DNA from: a virus
Lineage: Duplodnaviria > Caudoviricetes
IMG/VR virus record: IMGVR_UViG_3300021124_000019
Coordinates: 1-34,533 of that record
Reading direction: 5' to 3' (one strand)
Length of the DNA stretch: 34,533 nt
The position numbers and the translations under genes were made by a program. Under the pieces are notes generated by a model, which worked only from the letters and a program-made list of their open reading frames with translations, was not told where the DNA came from and did not search any database. Shown here piece by piece: positions 1,381 to 33,414 of this stretch; position 1 is the first letter of the stretch, and every line of letters begins with the position of its first letter.

Positions 1381-2469
1381 CTAGTTTGAAGTAATACCAG
1401 TTAGTTTACCGTTTCTTCGAGGTTGTCTGTGGATTAAGTTACCCATAAGAATCAATAGACCTACTTCACCATACTGGTTAACAGGAGCGATTAATTCTCT
1501 GAATTGCCATGCACTTGGGAATGAAACATCTTTGTAGAAACCTTCAGTAACTTCAACAGTTGAAGAAATCTGACGTAGGCTTGAGTCTACTAGTCTCTTA
1601 AATTCCATGTAGTATTCGTTTAGCCAGAAGAAAGTCTGTGAAGTACAGTTATCATCTGCAACTAAAGGACGTGCACGGTAGCTAATAGCGTTGAATCCAG
1701 CAAAAGCTGAAGTCTTTTCACCAGCTGGGCGAGTTTGTCCAACAGGAGTTCCACCATCTACTCGGTCGTAACCTTGTATTTGAAGAGTCTCGTATCGAGC
1801 ACTTACCATAGGCTGAATTAGACCTTCGATGTAAGTCCAGATAGTCTTAGTAGTAAGACCAATAGTAGGGCTTTCCATTGAAGAACTTGCAGCTGAAACG
1901 TTGTCAAACTCAGATGACAAGTAGTCAAGAGTAATGATTCCGTTAGTTACTGCAGTAACATCAGCGTTAATGAAGGTGTTAGTGCTTCGTGTGATACCAG
2001 CGTAAGAGCTTGAGTTAGTACCATTGTCTACAATTAGTCCAAGACCATCGAAGTCTTTTCCTGAACCTAGACCGTAAGCAATCTGACCAACAGACTGCAA
2101 AGCAGAAATCTTAGCTTCGTCAAGACGAGTCTTGAGCAACATAAGAACTTGCTTCTCGTTGTTAGCGTTTACTGCTCGTTCAATACCAGGTACTACAACT
2201 GACTGTTCGTAAGCTGCAAGATACCAAGTCATAAGACGAGTGTTGTTAGTGGCTGCCGTTGGGAAAGTATCCATACCTGAGAAAGAACCACCAGTTGTAC
2301 TGTTAGCAATTTCTATAGGTTGTGCTTCGTATACACCCTTCCAAGAACCAGGCTTGGAAAGAACACGAGCTAGGAATACGTTCGAGTTGTTGATTTGGTC
2401 AACAATTGAAGGCAGTATGTCTTGATAGGTTATGTCTGCGACCCTATCGGTGAATACCATTCCGGCCAT
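1381..2469 (-). CDS. Major capsid protein (HK97 fold)
   Basis: 362 aa after portal and scaffold; GSGKDFDGLGLIVD...YAGITRS and C-terminal GNLIHRQPRRNGKLTGI resemble capsid proteins; AAGGAG SD. Confidence 0.85.
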   Translation of the reverse strand: MAGMVFTDRVADITYQDILPSIVDQINNSNVFLARVLSKPGSWKGVYEAQPIEIANSTTGGSFSGMDTFPTAATNNTRLMTWYLAAYEQSVVVPGIERAVNANNEKQVLMLLKTRLDEAKISALQSVGQIAYGLGSGKDFDGLGLIVDNGTNSSSYAGITRSTNTFINADVTAVTNGIITLDYLSSEFDNVSAASSSMESPTIGLTTKTIWTYIEGLIQPMVSARYETLQIQGYDRVDGGTPVGQTRPAGEKTSAFAGFNAISYRARPLVADDNCTSQTFFWLNEYYMEFKRLVDSSLRQISSTVEVTEGFYKDVSFPSAWQFRELIAPVNQYGEVGLLILMGNLIHRQPRRNGKLTGITSN

Positions 2470-2506: not shown

Positions 2507-2559
2507 AAAAAAACCCTCACAAGGAGGGCTTAATAATTTGCCTAGATAATCCTAGTATA
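2507..2559 (-). promoter_or_regulatory. Late leader motif copy 1 (upstream of MCP)
   Basis: Minus strand TATACT-aggattatct-AGGCAAA-ttatta-AGCCCTC-cttgt-GAGGGTT-TTTTT; -10 spacing deviates (TAGGAT lies 5 nt before AGGCAAA). Confidence 0.75.
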
Positions 2560-3871: not shown

Positions 3872-6112
3872 TTAAACGGGAGGTAAAACACTAGGGTTGC
3901 CAGTGTTAGGAATTTGTGGATTGGCTGGGTTTGGTAAATTGGTTCCTGAGAATATAGAACCGCCCAACATAGCCTGTGAAGCGCCTGGAGCCATAGGTAT
4001 ATTACTCTGTGGACCCATTGGTGGCATCCCCTGTGGTGGCATACCTTGAGGTGGCATACCTTGAGGTGGCATACCAGGAGCGCTTGGTGGACCAGGATTT
4101 AACTCTTGTTCAGTAGGTTGACCGGGGTTGTAAGGCTGTAATGGTACTTTTGGACTCAAATTCATGACGTTTTCTTCGCCCATTTGGTCTAATGCCATGG
4201 TAGTTTCTAATCTGAGTAGCATTTCATCTACAAAATCAAGGTAAGCTTGCTGTTTTGTCTTGTTGAGCTTCATAAATTCGTCTCTAACCATCAATTTTCT
4301 GAGTGAAAGTACGTATTCTTTAGTTACGTGGTCAGGTTCCATTGGTTTTTTGCCATTTATAATCTCTACGTATGCTACGTAAGCCTTAGCTTCATCAATT
4401 TCATCAAGTCCATCACGTGCAAGAGCCATTGGGTCAACTTTTTGCTTAGCCCAGTTGTCGTAAAGCTTCTGTGGGTTCTGTAAATGGAGTAATTTGTAAG
4501 CATCAAGTAGTGAAATTGAAGCACCCATCTTAAGAAGTTGTAATACGACTGCTTCTTGTCGGTGATTATCAAAGGCAAGTGAGGTTCCGCCCTTTACATT
4601 GATAGCCATTCCGTTATCAATAAGGTCTCGGTGCATTGTAATATAATCAAATTCGCCATCACCACCGTTGTATACAAAGAAATGTCGTTCTGAGTACCAT
4701 ACAACCATCATCTGTACTAAGTATTGGAAGTAAGCGTTCATAAAACGGTCTATGGAACGTACATATAAGTCCTGTCGACCTGAAGCTTGATTCTTCTTCA
4801 TCATTGACTGACCTAAAGTTTCACTTGTTGTATCTCCGTCATTAGAACCAGTAAATTCAGAAGGGGTACCCATTATAGAATGGATAGTTGTACGCTGGTC
4901 CATTTTATCTTGGAATAAGAACTGTGGAATTTCAGGAGGTGGTAGTCGGAAGATTACGTCTTGTGCTCTCACGTTAGGTGGTGGAGATATAACTATTCTT
5001 TGGTTAGGGTCATCTGTAAGGTCTTGTACGTCATCTTTACTCATTCCACTCTTGGTGTCAATTACTAGAATACCGTTTGCCTTGTCAGCGACTTCCATTA
5101 ATTGTCGACCACGCTTGTTAAGAATGATTTGTACTTTGGAAGCTTGTTCTACAGAAGATGTGTAATCAATCCAGTGTTGTCCATCGTTATCAAAGTTAAG
5201 TGGGATAAATGGTTTCTTTGGTAAATCAATAAAGTTCTTTTCGTTCTTTGAATAGATGTAATGTGGGTTTCGTGATTTTTCAAGCACTAAGTTCTGAAAG
5301 TAATAGACGAGAGCTTGGTGTGGTTCAAAATCTTTATCGTAGTGAGTTAACCATACTTCTCTAACTACCATAATTTGGTCTAGCTGTTTAGAAGTACCTC
5401 GTACAATACCAGCTTCTGAATAAATAGCTTTCTTTTTCTCGGGCCAACGATTAACCATTTCATTAACTGACATTTTGACGTTCCTACAAATAAAATCAGG
5501 GTCTTCACCCATCTTGGCGTTCTTATCAATAATAACTTCTTCTGGGTTCAAAGCTATTGGAATAATCTCACCGTTCTTACCGTAGTTAGGGTCAAACTGG
5601 AAGTAAATCAAACCTAATCGTTTATTGAGTACGTTCTTAACGCTAGTTTCTAGTAATTGCTGTAGGTTTACTTTAGCTGAGTGGGCTACACATACTCTTT
5701 CAAGGTCTAAAGCGAATTGACGAGCTTGTGGTGAGTCCTGAGCTGGAGAAACTTCTGGTGATGGAGTGTTAGCTGTTAAGTAAGCTGTAATAGCTTGTTC
5801 TGCTACATAGATTTGGTTTTCTACGTAAGGTGTCTGAAACCTATAGAGTGAACGCACGTCATTTTGTTTACCTAAGTAAAAACGCATAGCTTCGTTACGA
5901 GCTTGTCTCAAATTAAAACCATCTGGTGCATCCCAATAGCCAATAGAGTCATCTATACGATTGTCTAAGTTCTTAATAATTTGATTGTCGGGAATGTCTA
6001 TTGACAAAGGAGGTAGTTGGTCTATCTGTCCACTAGGAACATCACTTAAGCGGTCTACCTTAGTGTCATTTAACGGAGGAGCGGTTTGCTCGTAATCCCA
6101 ATTATTTGCCAT
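3872..6112 (-). CDS. Portal protein (P22-like, long)
   Basis: 746 aa downstream of terminase, upstream of scaffold/MCP; Pro/Gln/Met-rich disordered C-tail. Confidence 0.85.
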   Translation of the reverse strand: MANNWDYEQTAPPLNDTKVDRLSDVPSGQIDQLPPLSIDIPDNQIIKNLDNRIDDSIGYWDAPDGFNLRQARNEAMRFYLGKQNDVRSLYRFQTPYVENQIYVAEQAITAYLTANTPSPEVSPAQDSPQARQFALDLERVCVAHSAKVNLQQLLETSVKNVLNKRLGLIYFQFDPNYGKNGEIIPIALNPEEVIIDKNAKMGEDPDFICRNVKMSVNEMVNRWPEKKKAIYSEAGIVRGTSKQLDQIMVVREVWLTHYDKDFEPHQALVYYFQNLVLEKSRNPHYIYSKNEKNFIDLPKKPFIPLNFDNDGQHWIDYTSSVEQASKVQIILNKRGRQLMEVADKANGILVIDTKSGMSKDDVQDLTDDPNQRIVISPPPNVRAQDVIFRLPPPEIPQFLFQDKMDQRTTIHSIMGTPSEFTGSNDGDTTSETLGQSMMKKNQASGRQDLYVRSIDRFMNAYFQYLVQMMVVWYSERHFFVYNGGDGEFDYITMHRDLIDNGMAINVKGGTSLAFDNHRQEAVVLQLLKMGASISLLDAYKLLHLQNPQKLYDNWAKQKVDPMALARDGLDEIDEAKAYVAYVEIINGKKPMEPDHVTKEYVLSLRKLMVRDEFMKLNKTKQQAYLDFVDEMLLRLETTMALDQMGEENVMNLSPKVPLQPYNPGQPTEQELNPGPPSAPGMPPQGMPPQGMPPQGMPPMGPQSNIPMAPGASQAMLGGSIFSGTNLPNPANPQIPNTGNPSVLPPV
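4018..4077 (-). repeat. 15-bp tandem coding repeat (GMPPQ x3 plus GMPPM)
   Basis: ggtggcataccttga-type units on + strand within the portal C-terminus. Confidence 0.8.
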
Positions 6113-6293
6113 TCTTCATTTTTCCCTTTTTAGGAGTTTTAACTTCAGATTCAGAAGATTGCATTAAGCCAGGAATACCGGGTTTAGGAATAGACAAGTC
6201 ATTATACTTGCGGTGCTGGTGTTGCTTTCCTTTATCGCTTCTTTGGACTTTGCGAATTACTTTCTGTTTCATCAAATCTTGTATTGTTGCCAT
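6102..6293 (-). CDS. Small basic protein (MATIQDLMK...)
   Basis: 63 aa Lys-rich; ATG directly follows U-tract of leader copy 2; overlaps portal start. Confidence 0.65.
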   Translation of the reverse strand: MATIQDLMKQKVIRKVQRSDKGKQHQHRKYNDLSIPKPGIPGLMQSSESEVKTPKKGKMKNGK

Positions 6294-6344
6294 AAAAAAA
6301 ACCCTTCATGAGGGCTCCTGTTTAATTTGCCTAATTTCATTATA
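6294..6344 (-). promoter_or_regulatory. Late leader motif copy 2 (upstream of small basic protein and portal)
   Basis: TATAAT-gaaatt-AGGCAAA-ttaaacagg-AGCCCT-catga-AGGGTT-TTTTTT-ATG. Confidence 0.8.
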
Positions 6345-6346
6345 CA

Positions 6347-6577
6347 TCATTGAAAAAGTATTTTATAGCGATTTTTACAAGAGTGGCAGACGATTTCAAT
6401 ATATTGTTGTGATGGTGAGTACGTATCCCAGCCAAGCCCTATGTCGTTGGAAATTGTAATTTCATGTGTGTTAGCTCTAAACAAAGTTCTACCACATCCG
6501 CACTTAAATTTTTGAGGTCTTTCGACTGGCGCAGGAAACAACTTAGCGTGAAATATCATTAAAATATTCAAAACCAT
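6347..6577 (-). CDS. Com-like zinc-ribbon protein, putative RNA/DNA-binding regulator
   Basis: CGCGRTLFRAN...IEIVCHSCKNRY parallels phage Mu Com (CxxCNKLLFKAD...IEIRCPRCK, recalled); overlaps terL stop. Confidence 0.7.
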   Translation of the reverse strand: MVLNILMIFHAKLFPAPVERPQKFKCGCGRTLFRANTHEITISNDIGLGWDTYSPSQQYIEIVCHSCKNRYKILFQ

Positions 6578-7851
6578 TCTCCCATCTCTCGCTGTTCACG
6601 AGACACACGTTTTAATATCTCTTCTAAGTCTATATGAAAAGCATCTGCAGTACCATCCTCATTTACTACGAAAGATTTTTTCTTAGCGTCTGGTGGAGCT
6701 ATTGTGACTACACCAGAAGTTCTTTCTTTAGCGTATGTGTAAGTTTCTAATGCGTAGCGTAGTGCGTCTAACAGGTGGTCGTTGCCGCCTTCTGGTTGAT
6801 TAATAATCTTGCCGTCTTTGTCAGTTTTCCATAAGTAGTTTCGATATTCCTTGAGTAAATTTGTACTCTTCTTAGTGACGGAGATACGCTGGTCTTGTAT
6901 GTATGAGATTCCTTGTAAGATAGAACCTCTACCTTTCTGAGCCGGAACAATTGGTATACCGTAACTTCCAATTTCGTCAATAGATTTAGGTTCAGCTGAG
7001 TCAGCATACACAAGCGTTTCAGGGTCGTTTGTAGAATCTAAAAAGTCAGCTATGTCTTTGTTGCTTAATCCTTTCCTGTAGAGAACTTCGTTTAATATAA
7101 GTCCTCCATTGTAGCGGTAGATATCAATAATAGCTGTAGGGTCGTTTGTATATCCAAAGTCCAATCCTCGCCTTTCGAGTTTGGCTTCGTGAGGTATGTG
7201 GTCAATAATAGCCCAGTCTTTGTAAATACGAGACTCAACTTCACCAAGCTGTCCTAGACCGTATACAAGCCACCAGTTTTTGTTGTGTTTGTGTGACTCA
7301 ATATCCTGAACAATTGAATCGTCTAATCCTTCATTGTCCTTGTAAGTAATTGTAAGAAAGTCTACGTCATAGTGTGGAAGGATTTCGGTATACCACCAGA
7401 ACTCGTTAGTAGGGTTCCAGTCTAGCCAAATAGTCTGACGGGTACGAACTCGGAGTTGGTCAAACTCTTCATACCCAATGTTGTTGGCTTCGTTCATAAA
7501 AAGCACATCACGTCTTGGTCCTCTAACTTTACCTGGCTGGTCTGCACTAAAAAATTCTATGCGTGAGCGGTTTGAGAAAGTATACGTGAAATCAGTCTTA
7601 GACCATTCATCATCTTTGTAATAGTTAGTATCCTCCATAATAGAAAGAAAGTCTCTCATAGCGCCCCTACGTAAGTGAGGAAAAGATTCTGAAACAACTG
7701 AAATAAGAATCCCAGGATTAGTCTGTGCTTGGTCTATTAAGATTTGAAGTATCGAAATAGTCTTCCCAGCTGAGGTCCCTCCGGCTATCCCCCTAATTCT
7801 TTTGTCTAGCTTAAGCAGTTTAGTTGTAGCCGATGTTTGGATGTAGTTCAT
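6568..7851 (-). CDS. terL: Terminase large subunit (PBSX-type)
   Basis: Walker A GGTSAGKT, Walker B LFMNEA, nuclease motifs GLDFGYTNDP, YADSAEPKSI, NDHLLDALRY. Confidence 0.95.
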   Translation of the reverse strand: MNYIQTSATTKLLKLDKRIRGIAGGTSAGKTISILQILIDQAQTNPGILISVVSESFPHLRRGAMRDFLSIMEDTNYYKDDEWSKTDFTYTFSNRSRIEFFSADQPGKVRGPRRDVLFMNEANNIGYEEFDQLRVRTRQTIWLDWNPTNEFWWYTEILPHYDVDFLTITYKDNEGLDDSIVQDIESHKHNKNWWLVYGLGQLGEVESRIYKDWAIIDHIPHEAKLERRGLDFGYTNDPTAIIDIYRYNGGLILNEVLYRKGLSNKDIADFLDSTNDPETLVYADSAEPKSIDEIGSYGIPIVPAQKGRGSILQGISYIQDQRISVTKKSTNLLKEYRNYLWKTDKDGKIINQPEGGNDHLLDALRYALETYTYAKERTSGVVTIAPPDAKKKSFVVNEDGTADAFHIDLEEILKRVSREQREMGEWF

Positions 7852-7893: not shown

Positions 7894-8084
7894 AACAGGG
7901 GTAACGTCGCACAACATATAATGTACGACTAGGACTAACAGGGGTAGGCATATACTAGGCAATAGACTTGACAGTTTGCATAGGGGTAGGCTAAGACAGT
8001 TTATATAATCCCGCAATTTTCGATACCTTAACAGGGGTGCGCATAAAAGCCTATTATACCATATTATTCAGGCTTAACAGGGGT
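7894..8084. repeat. Five spaced AACAGGGGT-type direct repeats between terS and terL
   Basis: AACAGGGGT at 7894, 7937, 8030, 8076; variant CATAGGGGT at 7979. Confidence 0.75.
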
Positions 8085-8473: not shown

Positions 8474-8482
8474 ATTATAGCA
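8474..8482 (-). promoter_or_regulatory. Extended -10 promoter for terS (near-leaderless)
   Basis: TGcTATAAT 8 nt upstream of the terS ATG; no SD in between. Confidence 0.6.
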
Positions 8483-10551: not shown

Positions 10552-10609
10552 AAAAAAGCAAGCTCTGTAAAGAGCCTGCTAAACGAAAGACGCCTTTATT
10601 TTGAAGGCA
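10552..10609 (-). ncRNA. Candidate sRNA 1
   Basis: TGaTATAAT (10615-10623), 6 nt, GCCTT-N7-AAGGC hairpin, linker GTCTTTCGTTT, AGCAGGCTCT-ttac-AGAGCTTGCT-TTTTT terminator. Confidence 0.6.
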
Positions 10610-10732
10610 TTTAAATTATATCATAACTAGGGCTTATCGTAATAATTTAAGACTTACACCTTTAAGGTTGCGACCCTAGTAATTAAATAATAACTTATAC
10701 ACAGGTTTAGTCAATATTTAACATTATTAGTA

Positions 10733-14168: not shown

Positions 14169-14540
14169 ATGAGTAAAACAACTATAAATGAATTAGAAAT
14201 AAACGGACAAACTTATGTACTTAAAGGTACAGACAATAAAAAATCCGAACAATTAAATGGAATGGACTTTGTAGTAGTCCGCACCTATAGTGCTGGAGTA
14301 TTTGCAGGTTACCTTAAAAACCGAGATGGTAAAGAAGTGCATTTAGTAGACGCTATCAGATTATGGTATTGGGACGGGGCAGCTTCTTTGAGCCAATTAG
14401 CTACAGATGGAGTAAGCAAACCTAATAATTGTAAGTTTGCTGTACCAGTAAATGTAACATTGACCGAAGCAGATGAAATTATAGAAACAACTGATAAAGC
14501 ACGAGAGTCAATTCAAGGTGTAAAGTCATGGGTAGTTTAA
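14169..14540 (+). CDS. DUF6948-like phage protein
   Basis: VVVRTYSAGVFAG...RLWYWDGAASLSQLA.DGV signature; AAGGAG SD before ATG 14169. Confidence 0.75.
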   Translation: MSKTTINELEINGQTYVLKGTDNKKSEQLNGMDFVVVRTYSAGVFAGYLKNRDGKEVHLVDAIRLWYWDGAASLSQLATDGVSKPNNCKFAVPVNVTLTEADEIIETTDKARESIQGVKSWVV

Positions 14541-14761
14541 CAGAATTAAATACTGAAGATATTGCTTTTGGCTATGACTCTGGCTCTGGCTATGGCTATG
14601 ACTCTGGCTCTGGCTCTGGCAATGGCTATGGCTTTAGCTCTGGCAATGGCTCTGGCTATGGCAATGGCTATGGCTCTGGCTCTGGCTCTGGCAATGGCTC
14701 TGGCTATGGCAATGGCTATGGCTCTGGCAATGGCTATGGCAATGGCACAGGAAAAGGATAG
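14528..14761 (+). CDS. Gly-rich (Gx)n repeat protein
   Basis: GSGYGNG repeats; such ORFs commonly follow DUF6948-like genes. Confidence 0.65.
   Translation: MGSLTELNTEDIAFGYDSGSGYGYDSGSGSGNGYGFSSGNGSGYGNGYGSGSGSGNGSGYGNGYGSGNGYGNGTGKG
14570..14746 (+). repeat. Hexamer microsatellite GGC(TCT/TAT/AAT)
   Basis: About 29 consecutive 6-bp units with few deviations. Confidence 0.9.
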
Positions 14762-20206: not shown

Positions 20207-20259
20207 AAAAAAGCCCCCATAGAAGAGGGCTGCTTAGTTTGCCTTTACATATTTTATCA
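20207..20259 (-). promoter_or_regulatory. Late leader motif copy 3 (upstream of basic-protein/lysis operon)
   Basis: TGaTAAAAT-atgtaa-AGGCAAA-ctaagc-AGCCCTC-ttctat-GGGGGCT-TTTTT. Confidence 0.8.
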
Positions 20260-20279: not shown

Positions 20280-20540
20280 ATGAGATTAGTACCAATCAAC
20301 AAATGTGTTTTAGTAAGATTAAACGATGATTCGCAATTGATTGATGTGCCAGACAAACAGTTTGCCACACAAGCGAATGGCCTAGTAGTTAGTGTTGCTA
20401 AAGATAGTTCCGAATACGATTACTTAACTGGTAAAATTGTTTACTTTGAAGAGTACCGTGACTCAGCACAGGTTGAGTTTGATGATGAAAAATTTGCTTT
20501 TATAAAATTAGAAGATTTGAAAGGATACCAAGATGAGTAA
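20280..20540 (+). CDS. groES: Co-chaperonin GroES (Cpn10)
   Basis: LVPINKCVLVR, GLVVSV, GKIVYFEEY, FAFIKLEDL pattern; directly upstream of groEL. Confidence 0.8.
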   Translation: MRLVPINKCVLVRLNDDSQLIDVPDKQFATQANGLVVSVAKDSSEYDYLTGKIVYFEEYRDSAQVEFDDEKFAFIKLEDLKGYQDE

Positions 20541-22095
20541 AATGTCCAGACATATTTGTCATGGTGAAGAGTTTCAAGCTGCCAAAGACAAAGCAGTAGA
20601 AGCTGCTTACAACCTAGCTAAAGCTGCATACGGACCTAGTGCCGGTAACGTAGCTATTGAGAACAACTTTGGTTATCCAACTGTATCCAGAGATGGTGTC
20701 ACAAACCTTCGCAAACTATACTTGGAAGATGGTAACGAAAATATAGCTGCCCGAATTATGGTTCAGGCTAGTGAAAAGAGTAATAAGATAGTTGGAGATG
20801 GTACAACCGCTGTTGTAATACTCAGTTACCATCTTTACAAAGAAGCCATGAAGTTAATTAGCGGTGGCTACAATAGAATGATAGTCCGCAAGATGCTAGA
20901 CAACACCGCATCAGAAATGATTAAAAGAATTGATGAGTTCAAAGTAGAAGCTACACCTGAACTAGCTAGATACGTAGCTAAAGTATCTGCAAGTGACGAA
21001 GCCATTGGTGATATGGTTGCTGATGTAATTGAAAAAGTTGGTACCGAAGGAAACATTATTGTAGAAGAGTTCGATGGTATTGGAAGTTACTCAGAAGAAG
21101 TTGAAGGTTTGTACTGGAGAAAAGGTTTCAGTAATGAGTTTCTTATTAAGAACTTATCTGGACTAGAATCTCGCCTGAACGATATAGACATACTTATAAC
21201 CGAAAAGACATTACAAACTGCATCTGATATTGCTCCAATACTAAACAAGATTGTAGAGCGTGCTGGGCGTGGTGTAGACCTGCTTATAATTGGTGAGGTA
21301 GTAGAAGAAGCTTTAGCTACTCTTGCTCTTAACAAAGTAAAAGGTAACATAGACGCTACTCTAGTTGATGTAGACGTACACGGACCAATGCGAACCTTAT
21401 TCTTAGAAGACATAGCTGCTGTAACAGGTGGAAAGATATTCCCTACTGGTGCTAAGTCAAGTTCATTCAATATAGATATGCTTGGTAGTGCTGGTAAAGT
21501 TGTAGTCAACACTAGTTCGACTACCATTATGGAAGGCCACGGAGCAACAGAAGACATTGATGCACGTGTAAATGAATTACGTATACAACTAAAAGAAGCT
21601 GAAAGCTTAGTAGACAAACAAGAGATTAAGAAAAGAATATCTGCAATCACTGGTAAGATTTCAATCATCCGTGTAGGAGCACCAACAGAAGTAGACCGAG
21701 GCGAAGTCCAACTACGAGTAGAAGATGCTATAGCAGCAACACAGAGCGCTCTCAGAGATGGTATTGTTCCTGGTGGTGGTATTACTTTAGCCCGTGTATC
21801 GACTGATGATTTCAAAGACGCATTTCAAGCACCATTCCAGACCTTATTAGAAAACGCTGGCTACAATCCTAAAGAAGGTTTGTTCCGAGCACTTGCTGAG
21901 AAAGATAAATGGGCTGGATATAACTTAAGAAAAGAAATAACTGATTACAAACCTGATAATTTATTGGAAGAAGGAATCATTGACCCTGCAGAGGTTGTCA
22001 AGGAAGCTGTACGTAACGCTACTAGCGTAGTTGGTACACTGATTACTACCACAGTTGGCATTACTTATGTTGACCGTGAAGTTAAGGCCGACTAA
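20533..22095 (+). CDS. groEL: Chaperonin GroEL (Cpn60)
   Basis: YGP, SRDGVT, VGDGTT, LEDIAAVTGG, RVEDA, GIVPGGG, GIIDP motifs; 520 aa; no GGM tail. Confidence 0.95.
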   Translation: MSKMSRHICHGEEFQAAKDKAVEAAYNLAKAAYGPSAGNVAIENNFGYPTVSRDGVTNLRKLYLEDGNENIAARIMVQASEKSNKIVGDGTTAVVILSYHLYKEAMKLISGGYNRMIVRKMLDNTASEMIKRIDEFKVEATPELARYVAKVSASDEAIGDMVADVIEKVGTEGNIIVEEFDGIGSYSEEVEGLYWRKGFSNEFLIKNLSGLESRLNDIDILITEKTLQTASDIAPILNKIVERAGRGVDLLIIGEVVEEALATLALNKVKGNIDATLVDVDVHGPMRTLFLEDIAAVTGGKIFPTGAKSSSFNIDMLGSAGKVVVNTSSTTIMEGHGATEDIDARVNELRIQLKEAESLVDKQEIKKRISAITGKISIIRVGAPTEVDRGEVQLRVEDAIAATQSALRDGIVPGGGITLARVSTDDFKDAFQAPFQTLLENAGYNPKEGLFRALAEKDKWAGYNLRKEITDYKPDNLLEEGIIDPAEVVKEAVRNATSVVGTLITTTVGITYVDREVKAD

Positions 22096-22361
22096 TGGTC
22101 ACTTTAGTTATCGGTTTATTAATCGGTATCTTATACAGAACAGGTTGGGACTTTATTAAAGATACTCGTAAGCGCTTTGAAAGTGTCCGCCCAGAAGTGG
22201 GAGCCACACATGCGTCTTATGGCAGGACCAATGAGTTCAATGTCAATCAAGCCGGACCAGTTGGTCTAGTAAAACCTAAGACACCACAACAGTTAGAGTG
22301 GGAAGAATCACAGCGTTTAAGAGAAATGCAATTTAATGTTAAAATGAAACCAAGAGGATAA
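22095..22361 (+). CDS. Membrane-anchored hypothetical protein
   Basis: 88 aa, N-terminal TM; TAATG coupling with groEL. Confidence 0.65.
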   Translation: MVTLVIGLLIGILYRTGWDFIKDTRKRFESVRPEVGATHASYGRTNEFNVNQAGPVGLVKPKTPQQLEWEESQRLREMQFNVKMKPRG

Positions 22362-22362
22362 C

Positions 22363-22596
22363 ATGGGTTATATTATAGATGGCAAATACTACAAAGGTAC
22401 ACCAGACATGGCTAAATTAGCTTCACGTCAACAATCTACCTATAAACAACATGAACAGAACAGACAGCGACATGATTTCGCTAAAGAGATATTACAACCT
22501 TGGAAGGGTGGCAAACCTAATGAAGATTTTATAGGTGCATACCCAGAAGAGAGTAAAGATTATGGATTCTTACCAAAGGATGAAGATTTAAAATAA
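22363..22596 (+). CDS. Hypothetical protein
   Basis: 77 aa; GAGGA SD; ILQPWKGGKPNEDFIGAYPE. Confidence 0.7.
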   Translation: MGYIIDGKYYKGTPDMAKLASRQQSTYKQHEQNRQRHDFAKEILQPWKGGKPNEDFIGAYPEESKDYGFLPKDEDLK

Positions 22597-22605
22597 GGAG
22601 ACGTT

Positions 22606-22878
22606 ATGGGAAAGATAAAGAACGCAGACAAAGGAACACACAAACTAACAGAGAGAGAGTTTAACTATCTAAACTTACTTAACTCAGCTCTTACATTCCA
22701 CACACTTAAGGATAGAATTATAAGTGGTTACCTATACTACGTATGTACTACTAAATTTGGATACGATGAAAACGTAAACCTTCTTTTTGAAATAGATTTA
22801 GACAGTGACACTATGGAACTGAAAGTACAGGAAGTTTCTAACGAAAACCTTAAGTCTACTGACCGTAAGCCCCAATAA
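22606..22878 (+). CDS. Hypothetical protein
   Basis: 90 aa; AAGGAG SD; 3' end overlaps convergent ejection gene. Confidence 0.65.
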   Translation: MGKIKNADKGTHKLTEREFNYLNLLNSALTFHTLKDRIISGYLYYVCTTKFGYDENVNLLFEIDLDSDTMELKVQEVSNENLKSTDRKPQ

Positions 22879-25929: not shown

Positions 25930-25980
25930 AAAAAAACCCTTCCTAAAGAGGGCTTGGTTAGTTTGCCTGACTTGATTATA
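25930..25980 (-). promoter_or_regulatory. Late leader motif copy 4 (upstream of ejection genes)
   Basis: TATAAT-caagtc-AGGCAAA-ctaacca-AGCCCT-ctttagga-AGGGTT-TTTTT-atttt-ATG. Confidence 0.8.
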
Positions 25981-33362: not shown

Positions 33363-33414
33363 AAAAAGCCCCTCAAAGAAGGGCTCCTAGGTTTTGCCTG
33401 CCTAAATTATATCA
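33363..33414 (-). promoter_or_regulatory. Late leader motif copy 5 (upstream of tail operon)
   Basis: TGaTATAAT-ttaggc-AGGCAAA-acctagg-AGCCCTT-ctttg-AGGGGCT-TTTT. Confidence 0.8.

Follow-up and report, generated by a model that had tools for sequence, protein, structure and literature searches.

A Com-related zinc-ribbon protein as a probable RNA-binding antiterminator of a multi-site late regulon in phages of likely Saccharibacteria hosts

Several systems are known in which a phage or bacterial protein makes RNA polymerase ignore a terminator. Lambdoid Q, AlpA and lambda N are loaded on RNA polymerase and, from a single site, act in a processive manner, lambda pR'/tR' being a promoter with a nearby terminator, and BglG/LicT-RAT is an RNA-binding antiterminator system. 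ANTAR/EutV is also an RNA-binding antiterminator (PMC3369931). The Com protein of Mu binds RNA as well, and acts as a translational activator; in PMC6483171 its site is given as GAAUGCCUGCGAGCAUCCC, a hairpin with the motif CC(N)2-3GAG, and the selected Com binders have a variable stem of 3-4 nt with an invariant C-G closing pair. A 2025 review of RNA-binding antiterminators (PMC12591593) contains neither "zinc" nor "phage" as whole words, nor the Com protein, and no description of a Com-type antiterminator, or of leaders such as those presented below, was found in the literature searched, a scope that has most subscription journals and supplementary motif tables outside it.

The DNA analyzed here, called the window from now on, is a whole stretch of 34,533 nucleotides from a tailed phage, in a record whose completeness is rated at 85%. 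Its 51 ORFs were scanned against PHROGs, and no match to an integrase or a polymerase was detected among them, nor to a mom-like gene, whose absence had already been noticed in an earlier sequence-only reading of the same DNA. That reading had flagged the interval 6294-6577, which is made up of a 76-aa ORF plus the leader 2 stretch at 6294-6346. The genes and promoter-like words connected with it are the following:

6347-6577, minus strand: Com-like four-Cys zinc-ribbon gene, 76 aa (C26, C28, C64, C67), predicted RNA-binding antiterminator
6568-7851, minus strand: terminase large subunit gene terL, upstream of the zinc-ribbon gene, with a 10-nt overlap
3872-6112, minus strand: portal gene, predicted target of leader 2
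1381-2469, minus strand: major capsid gene, predicted target of leader 1
8053-8058, minus strand: TATAAT, -10-like, before terL and the zinc-ribbon gene, without a leader
8474-8479, minus strand: TATAAT, -10-like, 8 nt ahead of the terS ATG, without a leader

As had been described, the 76-aa protein contains CGCGRTLFRAN, together with IEIVCHSCKNRY, and its gene overlaps the terL stop; the stop of the ORF ends at 6347 and the TATAAT of leader 2 lies at 6344-6339, in such a way that the gap between them is 2 nt. The absence of a leader before terS or terL was likewise confirmed, with plain -10 boxes being the only elements found there. The terS mRNA is likely leaderless, given the 8 nt between its TATAAT and the ATG, and no terminator-like site is listed on the strand of the terL TATAAT (8058-8053). 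A 117-aa ORF on the plus strand (6106-6459) was taken as a shadow of the minus-strand features.

Profile searches with the 76-aa protein produced 40 homologues at E<=0.001, and 44 distinct homologues were collected across the loci of the relatives. In a family of 50 sequences, C26, C28 and C67 were invariant and C64 was present in at least 90%, the four Cys forming two pairs as in the Com family. None of 10 family members matched Pfam PF10122 at E<=1, whereas Mu Com, used as the positive control, matched it at 2.7e-9, and because of this the protein is not filed as a PF10122 member. By contrast with this negative result, the comparison by hhalign of the family profile with an alignment of 22 Com sequences gave a probability of 96.4 and a score of 46.2 over 35 columns, with a 19-residue insertion required in the alignment; shuffled controls in which the four Cys columns were kept fixed had a mean of 14.1 and a maximum of 24.6, and 0 of 200 reached 46.2. 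The P2 Ogr protein, a single unrelated zinc finger and the only outside control for this homology, stayed at shuffle level (score 12.4, probability 0.9), so the similarity does not extend to the Ogr/Delta activators. On these profile comparisons the 76-aa protein is a distant relative of Mu Com, with a similarity that exceeds the Cys pattern, and the Com likeness proposed from the letters holds as remote homology but not as membership of PF10122. The protein resembles Com in its four-Cys ribbon, with the motifs RCxxCxxxLFK and IEIxCxxCK, and differs from it in having an extra N-terminal strand and the 19-residue insertion, in lacking the C-terminal tail, and in belonging to a family that escapes PF10122.

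AlphaFold2 modeled the protein as an all-beta ribbon (pLDDT 75). Foldseek searches of viral and PDB libraries with this model gave no match at E<=0.001, the top Z in a VIA-align fold search was 2.7, a sequence search of PDB returned only weak matches to the Cys pattern, and ESM Atlas provided, only as a lead, clusters of unnamed small proteins at 0.91-0.92. Neither an ANTAR nor a CAT RNA-binding domain was found among the Pfam/NCBIfam matches of the protein. A tblastn match in an Agathobacter phage fell inside a 464-codon gene and was dropped. Tandem two-domain zinc ribbons of 147-163 aa were also observed (proteins P0029, P0031 and P0035).

Five leaders were found on the minus strand of the window, each with a -10-like hexamer, an AGGCAAA word (starting at 2543, 6332, 20244, 25968 and 33399), an AGCCC..GGG(C/T) hairpin and a T run:

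2507-2559, minus strand: leader 1, before the major capsid gene, with a TTGCAA-17-TATACT promoter-like site, GGC[10 nt]GCC and a terminator-like hairpin
6294-6344, minus strand: leader 2, with the -10 at 6344-6339, GGC[13 nt]GCC at 6331-6313, a terminator-like hairpin and a T run at 6301-6294, followed by a 63-aa ORF and the portal gene
20207-20256, minus strand: leader 3, before a 108-aa ORF and the downstream endolysin cassette
25930-25980, minus strand: leader 4, before 350-aa and 666-aa core genes, which likely encode virion proteins
33363-33411, minus strand: leader 5, before a 125-aa core gene and the tail-fibre cluster

The five leaders thus precede structural and lysis operons, in agreement with the multi-site regulon, rather than a single target, that had been suggested for this phage. 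The window has 5 occurrences of the full pattern, which was derived from these copies themselves, and none turned up in 200 Markov-resampled windows. When the leaders were folded, the terminator was the lowest-energy structure in 5/5, and a small GGC/GCC hairpin of around -2.5 kcal/mol was found to use the same GCC that forms the base of the terminator 5' arm, in such a way that forcing this hairpin removes the terminator base at a cost of 3-11 kcal/mol. A promoter, an intrinsic terminator and a mutually exclusive small hairpin, the components of an antiterminator-type leader, are therefore all found here. It could be argued that the protein binds the leaders with a repressive effect, for instance if it enhanced termination at a late stage of infection, but we find this hardly credible: in every leader of the window the lowest-energy fold is the terminator, and the conserved hairpin is incompatible with its base, so that stabilization of the hairpin should favor read-through.

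The loops of the small hairpins in the window have 10-13 nt and are A-rich; they differ from the Com consensus, CC(N)2-3GAG being matched in none of the five, and what these hairpins share with the Com sites is just a short stem, the C-G closure and the A at the loop end. Nothing at the gathering score was found with Rfam in the window or in three stretches from relatives. The resemblance of the terminator stem to lambda boxB was set aside because AGCCC..GGGCT stems are common in ordinary terminators. At around 10560-10620 of the window (minus strand) a terminator-like hairpin comes after a -10 box, but the GGC/GCC element is missing; similar pairs are seen in the early regions of relatives.

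The conservation of the leaders was studied in 71 regions upstream of capsid genes, chosen by position and ignoring the motif. A terminator-like hairpin with a T run was present in all of them (71/71), and a -35/-10 pair in 66/71, compared with 1.8 in shuffles. A hairpin of 3 Watson-Crick bp, closed by C-G and placed over the 5' arm or the loop of the terminator, was detected in 68/71 regions versus 69/205 ordinary terminators taken from 57 unrelated loci, and the requirement for an A at the loop end left 62/71 versus 25/205 (an earlier count of the hairpin on 65 regions gave 62/65, with nulls of 22/65 and 62/156). The stems were GGC/GCC in 60 cases, GCC/GGC in 3, GTC/GAC in 3, AGC/GCT in 1 and GAC/GTC in 1, and the three regions without the 3-bp C-G hairpin have two 2-bp stems and one GGT/ACC stem; further variants (TGC/GCA, GACC/GGTC and G-U) were seen by eye in other leaders. 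In one sub-clade the terminator stem has moved over both halves of the small hairpin, and both halves are still kept. As the 71 regions are related by descent, these counts are not independent events, and the evidence for the hairpin is a handful of double changes that preserve the pairing. The variant stems fall in basal clades of the capsid tree, for which 2 of 55 rows were left out as too short, and in one clade of the zinc protein, and for this reason protein-RNA co-evolution is not separated here from phylogeny. From these comparisons, what is conserved is not AGGCAAA alone but a small hairpin, GGC[loop]GCC, in competition with the terminator; the five AGGCAAA copies reported for the window are real, although this word does not by itself define the leader.

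An alternative is that an RNA hairpin is not the target, and that the protein works at the promoter, on the DNA or the RNA polymerase, being loaded at the +1 AGGC in the manner of Q or Ogr. AGGC is indeed located at or just past the predicted start site in most copies, the succession of a promoter and a nearby terminator resembles lambda pR'/tR', and relatives of Com carry the database name "DNA-binding transcriptional regulator". Nevertheless, double changes preserve the pairing, whereas the spacing from the -10 ranges over 6-10 nt and the loop length over 4-15 nt; in addition, Ogr scores no better than shuffles, and Com itself is an RNA binder (PMC6483171), all of which makes an action on DNA or polymerase quite improbable in our opinion.

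Activation of translation in the style of Mu Com, through the melting of a structure that hides the ribosome site, was also considered. This would match the known activity of Com (PMC6483171), and in leader 2 the ATG comes straight after the T run. Against it, an SD-like word is located 3' of the terminator in 63/71 capsid leaders, with the capsid start codon at a median of 37 nt (minimum 11) beyond the terminator, and the stems are followed by a T run, so we regard translational activation as very improbable. The position of the SD-like words and of the start codons makes it likely that the switch is transcriptional, and not translational as in Mu, and it is in this form that the unlocking of the leaders proposed from the sequence may be retained.

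In more divergent relatives, the leaders come closer to the known Com target, and the loop motif CC(N)2-3GAG is found, or nearly so (N3-4), in G049, G384, L465 and MW202566. Two divergent relatives have 5-6 leaders that match the Mu Com site GCC-UGC-GAGCA. Six leaders of G049 carry AGCC-N3-4-GAGCA in the 5' arm of the terminator, in hairpins with only two Watson-Crick pairs, and the pattern appears 7 times on one strand versus 0.35 expected; since it was written after the six sites had been seen, this count is partly circular, whereas the match to the Mu site is not. G384 contains five Com-type leaders, with AGC/GCT or TGC/GCA stems, and one was found in L465 and another in MW202566, the latter before the capsid gene. 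Both the compensatory changes in the stems and the match to the Mu site point to the RNA as the likely target of the zinc-ribbon protein. The seventh site of G049 (L489:14654-14666, minus strand) is placed about 440 nt upstream of the zinc-ribbon gene, preceded by a -10-like word and with no clear terminator, and could represent autoregulation or chance.

To which hosts these phages belong can be judged from two observations. The capsid protein of the window phage is 56.7% identical to that of the TM7 phage DolZOral124_53_65 (MG269973), and one of the relatives sits in a 0.9-Mb genome bin, of a class with genomes of 0.4-2.2 Mb. For these reasons Saccharibacteria are the likely hosts of the window phage and its relatives. 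A search for a 16S gene in G049 found none.

The co-occurrence of the gene and the leaders was then followed across relatives. Leader-first scans of the viral collection were rejected for this purpose, as they returned mostly chance matches or ordinary terminators (76/107 loci), with a -10 in only 11 of the 122 matches of the second scan, and the test was rebuilt on relatives picked by their capsid. From 68 candidate records 50 were submitted, most of them capsid-picked, five through the gene and three through a leader. The zinc-ribbon gene was detected in 41 of the 48 records searched, including 8/8 of those at least 90% complete (7 of these capsid-picked), and in 3/5 records of a second batch. 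G385, rated as 100% complete, has leaders and no match to the gene, with a C-terminal piece ending in CNCIYRILFQ at the end of a contig, and because of the position of this piece it neither clearly confirms nor contradicts the co-occurrence. In the same genome (start of L509) terL runs into the stretch CLGYDTLI at the contig end, which resembles the start of an intein.

MG269973, a complete record, lacks both elements, in line with the co-occurrence that had been foreseen: the gene is absent, and inspection of the start regions of its structural genes by eye revealed a -10 right before the start and no hairpin. This phage retains 14 of 18 core families, and s90, g125 and x270 are also undetected in it. 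The more distant MW202566 (capsid 29% identical) has a weak homologue of the zinc-ribbon protein between terL and portal (E 8e-4), which makes this family the only one of the 18 undetected in MG269973 yet detected in MW202566, a comparison in which divergence limits detection in MW202566. A loose scan for leaders, which recovered only 3/5 of those in the window, gave 3-9 matches in the 14 genomes that hold the gene, whole or in part; MG269973 had 2, neither of them on the strand that carries its structural genes, and 10 matches came from 15 reversed genomes.

The connection with terminase proposed by the sequence-only reading is maintained only in part, since the gene overlaps terL in the window but this tie is not essential: in 10 near-complete genomes the zinc-ribbon gene belongs to the core and terL is not common to all. 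Among phages that share terL without the head module, the gene was present in 0/34, and 4 matches to the leader pattern were obtained in them versus 5 in the reversed control. In a comparison of the window with G020, G028, G034, G035, G039, G040 and G042, terL is not common to the clade, while portal, capsid and the zinc-ribbon gene are, which suggests an exchange of terL.

Gene and leaders are, however, inherited together, and it could be that the leaders are real switches, or leaky terminators that fix expression levels, worked by a host factor, by some other gene of the phage or by nothing at all, and that the zinc-ribbon gene is simply a linked gene of the head module, involved for example in packaging or assembly. 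Both are clade traits, the gene is always located between terL and portal, an interval in which accessory genes are frequent, and the leaderless TM7 phage lacks three more core families. Moreover, a terminator is missing from many of the portal promoters adjacent to the gene: none was detected in 20/52 portal upstream regions, a figure due in part to a detection limit, and in several relatives a -10 alone follows the zinc-ribbon gene. On the other side, mere linkage leaves unexplained why the leaders of G049, G384, L465 and MW202566 match the Com target beside a relative of Com, and in 301 genomes of the class to which the MAG with the G049 contig belongs the leader pattern stays close to background (15 matches versus 6 in the reversed control), none of the 15 having the terminator of the leader on inspection by eye. 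With these data in mind, we consider a merely linked gene unlikely.

The reading that we favor, and which we consider fairly probable on the sequence comparisons presented above, is that the zinc-ribbon protein is a Com-like RNA-binding antiterminator that runs a multi-site late regulon in phages of likely Saccharibacteria hosts. In this scheme, a host sigma70-type polymerase would start at each leader and stop by default after around 40 nt, while the zinc-ribbon protein would be made from the unguarded terS/terL promoters and would then accumulate. The protein would clamp the small C-G-closed hairpin in such a way that the terminator could not form and, once this promoter-proximal terminator is blocked, the polymerase would read into the virion and lysis genes, each operon being opened at its own leader and with no processive change to the polymerase.

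An antiterminator of this kind would resemble Com in RNA recognition and ANTAR/BglG in outcome, and by the tests run it belongs to neither family. As in Mu, the predicted target is a short C-G-closed hairpin, variable in its stem and overlapping with an inhibitory structure, and several relatives of the window phage also have the CC-N3-4-GAG loop; however, the competing structure is a terminator here and a ribosome-site hairpin in Mu, there are five or more targets per genome versus one in Mu, and the neighbors are terL and portal, with no mom or methyltransferase gene beside them. ANTAR/EutV and BglG/LicT have in common with the present leaders a small hairpin, predicted to be stabilized by a protein, that excludes an intrinsic terminator in the 5' leader, as well as regulons with multiple sites. 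By contrast, the zinc ribbon is an unrelated fold with no sensor or phosphorylation domain, its putative targets are phage morphogenesis genes, and a single hairpin is found here instead of the pair used by ANTAR. Lambdoid Q at pR'/tR', AlpA and lambda N/boxB would also share with this system an always-on promoter that a nearby terminator holds back until a small protein of the phage has built up, although here each operon has its own promoter and leader, and the data suggest a local RNA switch.

If this interpretation is true, the phage would turn on its late genes in a manner not described so far, without a sigma factor, a DNA activator or a polymerase-riding factor, and with only a 76-residue protein and a leader of around 40 nt per structural operon. 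It would also give a genome-wide transcriptional role to the Com family, so far studied in a member that has a single Mu gene as its target, and would represent the first regulatory circuit for Saccharibacteria phages, as far as the literature searched is concerned. The natural variants of protein and hairpin (the window type, the Com type of G049 and G384, and the GTC/GAC type) might yield very small orthogonal switches. In a wider proposal, which seems to us as apt to be wrong as right, Com-type zinc ribbons would constitute a class of RNA-binding transcription antiterminators, here with one protein running the whole late program through 5-9 promoter-hairpin-terminator switches, and the Mu Com/mom pair would be a derived use of the same protein-RNA code.

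Other features of these genomes were also detected. In G042 (L394:19819-19924) two leaders point away from each other on opposite strands, share part of their promoter regions and serve divergent genes. The window contains a block at 20280-22878 (plus strand), opposite to the structural genes, with groES, groEL and three small genes of unknown function; the groES/groEL block was found in 10/10 near-complete genomes, both genes are also present in MG269973, and groEL is present in MW202566. In MG269973 the product annotated as "homeodomain-like protein" (L513:18550-19626) is the capsid homologue (56.7% identity), encoded far from the portal block. Finally, most of a 77-aa ORF of the window (14528-14761, plus strand) consists of Gly-Ser/Tyr/Asn repeats, the source of which is a tandem array of 6-12 nt.
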